From NCBI GenBank assembly GCA_013335095.1, contig JAAXWF010000001.1:445984-509983 (forward strand): a DNA stretch of 64,000 nucleotides, written 5' to 3'. The notes beneath the pieces were generated by a model. It worked only from the letters and a program-made list of their open reading frames with translations. It was not told where the DNA came from and did not search any database. Source of the stretch: a candidate division WWE3 bacterium (GTDB lineage: Bacteria; Patescibacteriota; 4484-211; GCA-002791395). The position numbers and the translations under genes are program-made. Positions 850 through 2,370 of this stretch are shown piece after piece. Every line of letters starts with the position of its first letter. Positions within the stretch are counted from its first letter, which is position 1.

Positions 850-1140
850 CCTAAAAACCACCACCTCTGTCCTTAGGCCTATGCCTTGTTTTTTAGATCG
901 TGTGTGCTGGGTTTTAACTTTGCGCACACACCTCTTGGTCATGTAATTAAATTATTAATACATGACTTTATATCGTTAGCCTTCGGGCTTATATAAAAAC
1001 TCCCATCCTGGGGAGCTTTATATGTATTTGTTTGTTGTTGAAGTACTGCAGAACTTCATCAATAAATAGATACGCGATATTAACTAGGCAAAGCCAACCA
1101 ACAAGCCGGTTCTCCGAAAGGGGGCCGGCTTTCTTTTTTT
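850..1140 (+). ncRNA. structured RNA module A1 (3' element of unit 1), ending in a GNRA-tetraloop terminator
   Basis: Hairpins gtgtgtgc...gcacacac, gtcatgta...tacatgac, gcc-UUCG-ggc, ctccc...gggag and tgaagt...acttca, then terminator hairpin gccgg..GAAA..ccggc plus T-run. The same five hairpins recur with compensatory changes at 2080-2370. Confidence 0.55.
1104..1140 (+). terminator. Rho-independent terminator (GC stem, GAAA loop, T9)
   Basis: agccggttctccGAAAgggggccggct followed by ttcttttttt. Confidence 0.7.
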
Positions 1141-1170
1141 ACTTATTATCCAAAAAATAACCCCATAGCA

Positions 1171-1198
1171 TTGACTTGGCTTAACCATTGTGTATAAT
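1171..1198 (+). promoter_or_regulatory. sigma70-like promoter (TTGACT-16-TATAAT) for unit 2
   Basis: TTGACT at 1171-1176, tgTATAAT at 1191-1198. Confidence 0.6.
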
Positions 1199-1518
1199 CA
1201 TAGGCATAACCAAATTCACTTGCTCTCTTTGAGAGCGGGACCCGCCCGTCTGGGGCATATGGGTGGTCGTGTTTCACGGCCGAGGGGTATGCACCTTCCT
1301 AATGCATATATGGAGCGGCACTTTTGCCGCATGAATTTGGACCGCCTGTATAAGGCGTTGGGAGTTTATCTCCCCAATATTGTTGGCTATGGCGCACGGT
1401 TTGTACCCGTGTGCCTCGTTAGATGTATGTCTGCATGACGTTCCCTTCGGGGAATGTTGTGCAGCATACGTCTAACACCGCACCTTCATCAGGGTGCGTT
1501 ATGCCAGCAATATTGAAC

Positions 1519-1708
1519 CCGGATCTTTGATCCGGGAGCTACCTCCTCGGTAGCACCCCTGGTCTGATGAACCAGGGTCGAGTAGCAGTGGTACAAACAC
1601 TGAACTACTCATTATGAGGCCTCCTCTTGCACACGCAAGCGGGGGGGTAGCGATTTTAACGCTACCAGAGCCGTCGATCTTTTGATCACGGCTAACAGAG
1701 GGACCTAG
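1519..1708 (+). repeat. internal RNA module X1 (paralog of X2)
   Basis: Hairpin series ccggaTCTTTGAtccgg, cctggtCTGATGAaccagg, cagtgGTACAAAcactg, cttgcACACgcaag, gtagcgATTTTAAcgctac, gccgt..acggc and agaggg..ccccctct, in the same order as X2. Confidence 0.55.
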
Positions 1709-1889
1709 AACCCCCTCTCCACGAGATTATAAGGCGAGTGATGCAGTCATAACTGCATCACTGCTGGAAGTTTGTTTTGTAAAATTGAGTCCTTTGGGAC
1801 TTGGTTTTGCAGAGCAGCTTTCAGCACCCACACGTGACATTGACGTGTGGTTTGAGCCTTGTTCGTGGAACCGTGCCGAAAGGTGCGGA

Positions 1890-2067
1890 TCGCTGTCTCC
1901 TTGACAGCGACTCTGGTGTAATGAACCAGAGGGAGGTGGAAGTGTTTATGAACACTTACCATTTCACATAAGGCATCCTCTCGCGTCGGCGAGCGGATGG
2001 GTGGTGCAGTTTATGCACTACCAGGGCAGCATTCGTGCTGTTAACAGAGGGAATTAGAACCCCCTCT
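1890..2067 (+). repeat. internal RNA module X2 (paralog of X1)
   Basis: cgctgtcTCCTTGAcagcg, ctctggtGTAATGAaccagag, agtgttTATGaacact, ctcgcGTCGgcgag, gtgcaGTTTATgcac, cagcaUUCGtgctg and agaggg..ccccctct. Stems differ from X1 by paired (compensatory) substitutions while loops are conserved. Confidence 0.55.
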
Positions 2068-2079
2068 TGGCGTTGGGAA

Positions 2080-2370
2080 TACCGGGTCACAAAAACCCGG
2101 TTAGAAGGTAGTGTGTGCTGGGTTTTTCTTGCGCACACACATCTTAAAGTCGTGCAATCTAAGAAAAACAAATAATTAGCACGACTTTCATATTGTTGGC
2201 CGTATGGCCATTGTATTACCCCATCCCTGGGGTGATGCATAAAGTTGTATGTGAACACGGAGCTTCTGCAGAGCTTCATTCACATGCGCTTTACAATATG
2301 CTAATTGGGGACCTAAAATCCCAACGACCTGGGCCGGCACTCCGAAAGGGGGCCGGCCCTTTCTTTTTTT
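2080..2370 (+). ncRNA. structured RNA module A2 (paralog of A1) ending in a terminator
   Basis: gtgtgtgc..gcacacac, agtcgtgc..gcacgact, ggcc-GUAU-ggcc, acccc..ggggt, ggagct..agcttc and gggccggc..GAAA..gccggccc plus T-run. Confidence 0.55.
2331..2370 (+). terminator. Rho-independent terminator
   Basis: gggccggcactccGAAAgggggccggccc followed by tttcttttttt. Confidence 0.7.

Follow-up and report, generated by a model that had tools for sequence, protein, structure and literature searches.

Two paralogous RNA modules with a covarying fold at the predicted 3′ ends of tandem transcription units in a candidate division WWE3 bacterium

A stretch of 64,000 nucleotides (nt) from the genome of a candidate division WWE3 bacterium (contig JAAXWF010000001.1, positions 445,984 to 509,983; hereafter the window) carries two homologous RNA modules, A1 (839-1140) and A2 (2081-2368), that share one multi-helix fold, and this fold is maintained by selection on the + strand RNA. 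Judged from predicted promoters and terminators, the modules are the 3′ ends of two tandem, lineage-specific transcription units with paralogous promoters. Unit 1 encodes a small membrane protein, and unit 2 is a large RNA devoid of a credible open reading frame (ORF). WWE3 belongs to the Candidate Phyla Radiation (CPR), whose members have tiny genomes and from which, to our knowledge, almost no non-coding RNA has been described.

A1 and A2 are diverged copies of about 245-290 nt, and their homology goes well beyond chance. They match each other in an nhmmer search with E=4e-17, and a covariance model built from A1 only (R1; positions 897-1082, structure drawn by hand) recovers A2 (2108-2301) with 86.6 bits and an E-value of about 1e-21. 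Two words identical in both modules, the 16-mer GTGTGTGCTGGGTTTT and the 18-mer CTCCGAAAGGGGGCCGGC, occur exactly twice each, with 0.37 and 0.03 matches expected, respectively, at up to three mismatches. The copies agree in 64% of the paired and 59% of the unpaired alignment columns, with 25 gap columns. Searching with R1 revealed no further copy, and none with disrupted stems, in the window or in Logan contig L001, which overlaps it and adds 7.6 kb upstream, except for an echo of the palindromic P3c stem on the strand opposite A1; 1.4 Mb of other bacterial loci gave no match either. A protein-coding reading of the modules was rejected, as they contain only short ORFs with TTG start codons, none of them common to both copies, and many alignment indels are not multiples of three.

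Minimum-free-energy folds computed independently for A1 and A2 show the same helices in the same order (Table 1). Hairpins P0, P1 and P2 are followed by P3a, P3b and P3c, which the long-range helix P3 closes into a four-way junction with hardly any unpaired junction bases; a small A-loop hairpin and an intrinsic terminator with a GAAA loop complete the architecture. The six hairpin pairs listed in the original prediction are all present at 850-1140 and 2080-2370; it had missed the long-range P3 helix in both copies, and the lower stems are longer than it had stated. Its claim that the loops are conserved holds for CUGCAG and GAAA and fails for the P2 loop, which is longer in A2 (23 nt) than in A1 (13-15 nt), and for the P3a tetraloop, which is UUCG in one copy and GUAU in the other. 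The folding z-scores on the + strand are -8.1 for A1 and -10.0 for A2, compared with -6.6 and -5.0 on the - strand, and the + strand folds are the more stable ones by 14 to 23 kcal/mol. A GC-rich hairpin followed directly by a U-tract, as in an intrinsic terminator, is formed only by the last hairpin of each module (1103-1131 plus TCTTTTTTT and 2331-2359 plus TTTCTTTTTTT). A screen of the A modules for conserved pseudoknots returned a single candidate, GGGU:AUCC between the P1 and P3b loops, which is short and invariant. We also looked for a receptor of the GAAA tetraloop; the half-sites CCUAAA and UAUGG are present but do not lie on opposite strands of one helix, and this contact was discarded.

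To count base pairs, we used a model-guided alignment of A1 and A2 with 60 modelled pairs. On this alignment, which was fitted to the structure and therefore inflates the counts somewhat, the modelled pairs are 97.5% paired; 32 pairs are unchanged, 16 are kept by changes on both sides and 8 by single changes via G·U, and 3 are broken. When the 3′ partners were slid by 1-3 columns as a control, pairing dropped to 30-55% with at most two double changes. A2 retains 57 of 59 canonical pairs despite 43 substitutions in 119 paired positions; by comparison, when 43 substitutions were placed randomly in the paired positions of A1 in 20,000 runs, the canonical pairs left numbered 32.4±3.2 and never exceeded 45. 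The terminator, in which changes can be read directly, contributes two double changes from A-U to G-C and one single change from U·G to C-G. The compensatory evolution claimed in the original prediction is thus borne out for the module as a whole, including 16 paired substitutions. The exception is the top of P3c, where pairing in the six positions directly below the CUGCAG loop is preserved by shifting the register by one base and not column by column. The helices of A2 are not an artefact of the alignment, because the independent A2 fold shows them. Furthermore, G·U outnumbers A·C by 11 to 1, and this bias together with the strand-asymmetric stability identifies the fold as one of + strand RNA and not of DNA.

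Amid these covarying stems, some elements do not vary in sequence at all, namely P1 over its full length, CCCAUCC in P3b, CUGCAGA-N-CUUCAU in P3c and the terminator core. P1 is the sole stem without any substitution; its stem and the 5′ half of its loop are identical in the two modules, and the (GU)n/(AC)n repeat of the stem permits slippage by 2 nt. Such invariant elements among covarying stems speak for a recognition that is sequence-specific, in addition to the fold. As a separate observation, the apical loop of P3c contains the self-complementary hexamer CUGCAG in both copies (1045-1052 and 2265-2271), which may allow a kissing-loop contact.

Each A module ends in its own predicted intrinsic terminator and is preceded by its own sigma-70-like promoter upstream of the unit, and we found no promoter-like site between the unit 1 ORF or the unit 2 body and the respective A module. 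The modules would therefore lie at transcript 3′ ends, in agreement with the original prediction. The promoter flank of unit 1, CTTATAGTATTGACTTTGCTTA, is paralogous to that of unit 2, CCATAGCATTGACTTGGCTTA. Outside the promoters and the A modules, the two units show no similarity, and we rejected the idea that unit 2 arose from the unit 1 ORF by duplication and decay.

What the original prediction had not included is that A2 forms the tail of a hyper-structured non-coding RNA of 1.2 kb. The unit 2 body and A2 together make up a predicted RNA of 1.17 kb (1199-2368) without an ORF. On the + strand, the body folds with a minimum free energy of -473 kcal/mol (z=-31), compared with -385 kcal/mol (z=-12) for the - strand, and a z-score scan of the whole window singled out 750-2400 as the sole long hyper-structured stretch. 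Further local + strand folding outliers (z -6 to -8) are present at 16201-16425, 28501-28650 and 47026-47250; they lie in or beside GC-rich cassettes and are unrelated in sequence to the A modules and to the B modules described below.

The unit 2 body contains a second pair of paralogous modules, B1 and B2. All 53 comparable pairs are canonical in B2 (57 were modelled, 4 of which lack bases in B2), compared with 33.5±2.6 expected; 11 pairs show double changes, 6 single changes and none is broken, and G·U exceeds A·C by 6 to 0. Between B1 and B2, the last hairpin, AGAGGG-A..UAGAACC-CCCUCU, has hardly changed. Since B1 and B2 covary in the same way as A1 and A2, selection for RNA structure extends over the complete locus. 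Duplication of structured modules, followed by maintenance of the stems through compensatory change, is a property of the entire locus. The roughly 45 hairpin loops show no recurrent GGA motif, and we therefore rejected a sponge of the Csr/Rsm type.

Table 1. Coordinates of the predicted features of units 1 and 2 and of the GC-rich cassettes (window positions unless a contig is named; nt, nucleotides; bp, base pairs; UTR, untranslated region)
Feature	Coordinates	Strand	Description
Unit 1 promoter	317-344	+	TTGACT, 16 nt, TATACT; 10/12 consensus positions
Unit 1 5′ UTR	345-482	+	about five stable hairpins, then ribosome-binding site GAGGAGGAG
Unit 1 ORF	483-827	+	114 amino acids, GC 62%; NCBI HGA91_02390
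A1 P0	839-868	+	11-bp GC-rich hairpin, A-rich loop CCUAAAAA, 12 nt past the stop codon
A1 weak hairpin and U6	875-894	+	4 bp, 3′ of P0
A1 P1	900-931	+	stem GUGUGUGC / GCGCACAC(AC), loop UGGGUUUU
A1 P2	937-967	+	8-9 bp hairpin, AU-rich loop of 13-15 nt
A1 P3 domain	970-1080	+	closing helix 970-976/1074-1080
A1 P3a	977-990	+	UUCG loop
A1 P3b	991-1023	+	loop AUCCUG
A1 P3c	1024-1073	+	about 20 bp, apical loop ACUGCAGA
A1 small linker hairpin	1087-1095	+	GGC-AAA-GCC; weak, between P3 and terminator; putative analogue of A2 2305-2324
A1 intrinsic terminator	1103-1140	+	12-bp stem, GAAA loop, U-tract; core CUCCGAAAGGGGGCCGGC identical in A2
Unit 2 promoter	1171-1198	+	TTGACT, 16 nt, TATAAT; 11/12 consensus positions
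Unit 2 body	1199-2080	+	about 880 nt, no credible ORF, about 30 hairpins
Module B1	1536-1722	+	seven hairpins, paralog of B2
Module B2	1890-2071	+	seven hairpins; matched by B1-only model with 115 bits
A2 P0′	2081-2101	+	7-bp hairpin, A-rich loop CACAAAA
A2 P1	2111-2140	+	stem sequence as in A1 P1
A2 P2	2146-2188	+	10 bp, 23-nt A-rich loop; 2 compensatory pairs relative to A1
A2 P3 domain	2189-2300	+	closing helix 2189-2196/2293-2300
A2 P3a	2197-2210	+	GUAU loop
A2 P3b	2212-2239	+	loop UCCC within AUCCCU
A2 P3c	2241-2292	+	apical loop UCUGCAG
A2 small hairpin	2305-2324	+	UUGGGG-ACCUAAAA-UCCCAA; loop resembles A1 P0 loop
A2 intrinsic terminator	2331-2368	+	GAAA loop, U-tract; compared with A1, 2 compensatory changes from A-U to G-C
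GC-rich cassettes, window	483-827, 7083-7601, 11788-12093, 15825-18530, 20849-22375, 24069-24758(-), 28825-29190, 29385-29759, 34641-35066(-), 45822-48757, 50015-50800
GC-rich cassette, L001	13442-14032(-)

Unit 1 encodes a small membrane protein that has two helices, basic termini and the motif VVIHHHHYPR and is in effect an orphan; as read from its predicted promoter and terminator, unit 1 is the mRNA of this protein. A HMMER search of 1.84 billion representative proteins returned one distant homolog (P0123; 35% identical, E=3e-7), which has the motif VV[IV]HHHHYPR in common with the unit 1 protein. It is encoded on a Logan contig of 1,305 nt (L087) from another sample (run SRR21121627). Compared with unit 1, L087 has the same type of upstream terminator, an AT-rich spacer and a nearly identical promoter (CTTATAGT[AG]TTGACTTT[GA]CTTATT), and its 5′ UTR shows the hairpins in the same order with different stems. 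Its ORF has 70% GC and is followed, 3′ of the stop codon, by a P0-like hairpin with an A-rich loop. By these resemblances, L087 clearly qualifies as an orthologous unit 1 cassette. We considered GGAUUUGUGC-AGGGG in L087 as the start of a P1 hairpin and do not claim it, as R1 gives it no support. We also considered a type I toxin-antitoxin pair. A small membrane protein is indeed present, but blastn comparison of unit 1 with the reverse strand of unit 2 yields only matches of 9-15 nt within palindromic stems, and we rejected this reading for want of antisense complementarity.

No described RNA family matches the A domain or unit 2 in the searches that we ran. Rfam 15 gave no match at gathering thresholds in the whole window, including GOLLD, ROOL, OLE and raiA, and for positions 1-2500 at E-values up to 10 only chance-level matches appeared, the best of which was Phe_leader on the wrong strand (27.7 bits, threshold 55). 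ARAGORN detected neither a tRNA nor a tmRNA in the 64 kb. On these grounds we rejected the known large RNAs (RNase P, tmRNA, 6S, introns, GOLLD, ROOL and OLE) as well as the prophage or tRNA-island setting typical of GOLLD and ROOL, for which neither phage records nor IMG/VR gave a match. In blastn searches against phage and plasmid records no match was found, and the A and B covariance models detected no copy in WWE3 relatives. The P1 pattern GTGTGCTGGGTTTT-N(3-12)-GCGCACAC was absent from IMG/VR, from the GTDB genomes (species representatives) and from JGI metagenomes; the terminator core, the module B hairpin b7, a three-loop pattern and the promoter pattern were absent from IMG/VR, and the loop pattern CCCATCC..CTGCAGANCTTCAT..CCGAAAGG from JGI metagenomes. 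As these pattern scans were limited to exact matches and raw SRA data were outside their scope, they support absence elsewhere only weakly.

The original prediction had named a known repeat or the terminal structure of an insertion sequence (IS) as the findings that would speak against it; we found no known repeat, transposase, terminal repeats or Rfam family. With 2 copies in about 74 kb, comprising the window and the flanks contributed by Logan contigs L001 and L086 (7.6 kb upstream and 2.1 kb downstream), 64% stem identity, a branched fold and no terminal repeats, the modules do not resemble REP/BIME elements or miniature inverted-repeat transposable elements (MITE). IS or transposon ends were rejected since no transposase is found among the neighbours and the borders share no words of at least 8 nt. 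Integron attC sites, which are single imperfect hairpins of 57-141 nt at the 3′ ends of promoterless cassettes arrayed beside intI, were rejected in view of cassettes that have their own promoters, a multi-helix module of ~250 nt, no called integrase and a G·U bias; the attC core motifs themselves were not searched.

A Logan contig assembled independently from run SRR11449211 shows no difference from the locus over 13.4 kb. In this genome of ~40% GC, units 1 and 2 lie among scattered GC-rich (52-62%, GC content at third codon positions up to 0.74) single-gene cassettes (Table 1). For each cassette we predict a separate sigma-70-like promoter situated in AT-rich DNA, a 5′ UTR rich in hairpins, a strong ribosome-binding site and a terminator. 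Among 18 cassette proteins we found no Pfam or PHROG family except for one PadR-like regulator; in PHROG, 17 of the 18 had no match and the PadR-like protein weakly matched families of unknown function. Two cassette proteins searched in 5.8 billion proteins returned self-matches only.

To place the locus among relatives, we identified WWE3 genomes by MreB protein search and contig look-ups; a GTDB MreB scan returned only distant phyla (at most 62% identity). In five WWE3 relatives, whose MreB proteins are 72-78% identical, only 0-24 nt separate mreB from fmt or the next gene. Here the gap between mreB and fmt is 3,111 nt (L001 11063-14173, corresponding to window 1-2388 plus ~720 nt upstream) and accommodates three tandem cassettes on the strand opposite mreB, encoding a 196-amino-acid orphan, unit 1 and unit 2. 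The convergent mreB gene (2389-3450, - strand) lies close to A2, with 20 nt between the terminator end and the mreB stop codon. The cassettes between dprA and PBP2 and between topA and rpsB are also missing in one relative (L084/L085). The borders of the 3.1-kb insertion show no direct or inverted terminal repeats and no shared words of at least 8 nt, and no transposase or integrase was found among the called neighbours, within about 20 kb on one side. The neighbouring genes include topA, rpsB, tsf, frr, an M50 peptidase gene, dprA, PBP2, mreD, mreC, mreB, fmt and a tRNA synthetase gene.

Several further features of the window concern the cassettes and its repeats. Three cassettes have the extended promoter motif [AG]TAG[CT]ATTGAC, which includes the -35 element and sequence upstream of it (6979-7016, 311-344 and 1165-1198); with up to one mismatch, the motif occurs nowhere else in the window. 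Two tandem cassettes at 28825-29190 and 29385-29759 are paralogous, with promoter regions at 28688-28761 and 29242-29315 that are 82% identical; their ORFs encode small membrane-anchored proline-rich proteins with the common C-terminal motif VVI[IM]NNG.G.VTYV.T...C.FVR.CPP. At 53358-63404 on the + strand, four tandem genes encode large PA14/dockerin-like secreted proteins of 671-887 amino acids, accompanied by a 176-nt 3′ repeat (55197-55372, 57222-57397, 60509-60684 and 63228-63403) whose copies are 60-89% identical.

What could the A domain do? The original prediction had suggested an sRNA derived from the 3′ UTR, a protective 3′ structure or a protein-binding scaffold as candidate roles. 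On balance, we lean towards a selected structural 3′ domain that acts in cis as a 3′ cap and displays a common recognition surface; our confidence lies mostly in the selected domain and much less in the role. In cis, the domain including its terminator would form a compact 3′ cap that bars 3′-to-5′ exonucleolytic decay. The invariant parts (stem and loop of P1, CCCAUCC in the P3b loop, CUGCAGA-N-CUUCAU in the loop and 3′ strand of P3c, and the terminator core) would form the recognition surface, which might be read by one hypothetical trans-acting partner, either a protein or an RNA. With this surface in common, the mRNA and the non-coding RNA may be coupled in their fates. The 5′ hairpins and strong terminators predicted in all GC-rich cassettes are consistent with a design for transcript stability.

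Stable 3′ stem-loops can impede 3′-to-5′ exonucleases: the REP/BIME stem-loops of E. coli and the ‘positive retroregulator’ of the Bacillus thuringiensis cry gene raise the half-life of transcripts in this way. These elements consist of one or a few simple hairpins, and REP occurs in hundreds of near-identical copies. The A domain resembles them in having stable 3′ stem-loops that include a terminator; it differs in forming a branched domain of ~250 nt with a four-way junction and sequence-invariant loops, present in only two diverged copies.

A number of points weigh against a protective and recognised 3′ cap. Only two copies are available, both from one metagenome-assembled genome, and there is no third sequence on which to test the fold; the structure-fitted alignment and the register shift at the top of P3c, described above, also detract from the pair counts. 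L087 ends 94 nt past the stop codon, and this truncated 3′ region gives no significant match to R1. Other cassettes manage with a simple terminator hairpin, so that 3′ protection alone leaves a domain of 250 nt unexplained. The promoters and terminators are consensus matches only, and the proposed binding partner is purely hypothetical.

An alternative that we regard as unlikely is mimicry, in which the unit 2 RNA would display A as a decoy and titrate an RNase adaptor or an RNA-binding protein off the unit 1 mRNA. Such a role would account for two RNAs that share a fold and invariant elements while their bodies are unrelated, and the promoter of unit 2 is predicted to be the stronger one, with 11/12 compared with 10/12 consensus positions. 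The precedent is GlmY/GlmZ of Enterobacteria, paralogous RNAs with a common RapZ-binding structure, one of which serves as a decoy for the other, so that homologous RNAs act via protein sequestration (PMC4152352, PMC4737144). Like GlmY and GlmZ, the A1 and A2 RNAs are homologous, have a conserved secondary structure in common and differ elsewhere. GlmY and GlmZ, however, are small RNAs (sRNAs) of about 150-210 nt that are found in many species and have a known partner, whereas the A modules are an mRNA 3′ UTR and the tail of a 1.17-kb RNA, and Rfam reveals no sequence similarity between the two systems. Furthermore, a decoy needs A only, which leaves the structured body of 880 nt unexplained, and no candidate binding protein can be named.

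We give similarly little weight to a broader proposal, according to which unit 2 and A would represent a new class of large modular CPR RNA that grows by module duplication and is linked to the mRNA via CUGCAG kissing, P1 strand exchange or a shared protein. Improbable as it is, this proposal would place an RNA-RNA assembly or mimicry circuit inside the family of GC-rich orphan expression cassettes.

A 3′ UTR-derived sRNA appears quite unlikely. Here, an A core of about 250 nt would be released and act in trans, with the upstream parts being mere precursors. In unit 1, P0 and the weak hairpin with U6 (875-894) indeed set the ORF apart from the A core, and the core ends in a terminator hairpin that is typical of sRNA 3′ ends. 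However, there is no promoter-like site before either core, A2 lacks a U-tract between body and core, and we detected no extended complementarity to a neighbouring transcript and could not propose a target. A similar layout is that of OmrA/OmrB, Hfq-binding sRNAs of about 80-90 nt whose conserved 5′ ends pair with targets. Both pairs are adjacent, duplicated and in the same orientation, with conserved termini and divergent centres; in the present locus, unlike in OmrA/OmrB, the units have the promoter and a large 3′ structural domain in common, and their centres differ in kind, with an ORF in unit 1 and a hairpin array of 880 nt in unit 2.

Very doubtful, in our judgement, is an assembly module, in which CUGCAG kissing, and maybe the P1 hairpins too, would join A domains into homo- or hetero-oligomers, with unit 2 as a self-assembling ‘ornate’ RNA. 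A six-base palindrome does sit in the apical loop of the longest hairpin in both copies, a P1 free of substitutions is expected if both strands also pair between molecules, and unit 2 is extremely structured (z=-31). The single motif A-CUGCAG-A of P3c, and nothing beyond it, resembles the HIV-1 dimerisation initiation site, a kissing loop with an apical loop of 8-9 nt that contains a 6-nt self-complementary sequence flanked by purines. GOLLD, ROOL, OLE and raiA are very large structured bacterial RNAs without ORFs (PMC12286853, PMC12968392), and OLE and GOLLD form multimers held by palindromic kissing loops (PMC12286853). Like these ornate RNAs, unit 2 is large, highly structured and ORF-less, with its own predicted promoter, and its palindromic apical loop is of the kind found in OLE and GOLLD. 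A trait of GOLLD, ROOL and OLE is an RNA-only homo-oligomer with kissing-loop and A-minor contacts, for which the CUGCAG loop is no more than a lead. Unit 2 differs in being known from one genome only and in consisting of many short, mostly simple and perfect hairpins and duplicated modules, unlike the irregular, pseudoknotted multi-domain cores of GOLLD, ROOL and OLE. Moreover, one 6-nt palindrome kept between two homologs is weak statistically, palindromes offer no covariation, and the sole candidate for a tertiary contact, between GGGU in the P1 loop and AUCC in the P3b loop, is short and invariant.

Finally, it is highly improbable that the modules are non-functional DNA palindromes (attC- or REP-like, or element ends) or duplication leftovers ‘compensated’ by template-switch repair: they do lie within a lineage-specific insertion and their hairpins are unusually perfect, but DNA palindromes would be symmetric, in conflict with the G·U excess in the A and B modules and the strand-asymmetric stability, neither long-range P3 nor the four-way junction is a simple palindrome, the roughly 74 kb covered contain only two copies with 64% stem identity, and neither a transposase or integrase, within about 20 kb on one side, nor terminal repeats of at least 8 nt were found.

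Returning to the selected 3′ domain, the locus provides a clean demonstration that covariation between paralogs in one genome can validate an RNA fold where orthologs are unavailable. In this WWE3 genome, about 1.5 kb transcribed from predicted near-consensus promoters is devoted to RNA structure, with purifying selection visible in two independent pairs of paralogous modules. If the fold is functional, the few ‘ornate’ bacterial RNAs would be joined by a further large RNA, together with a structured domain that is itself new, and the fold would offer a handle on the GC-rich orphan cassettes that are scattered through the genome.

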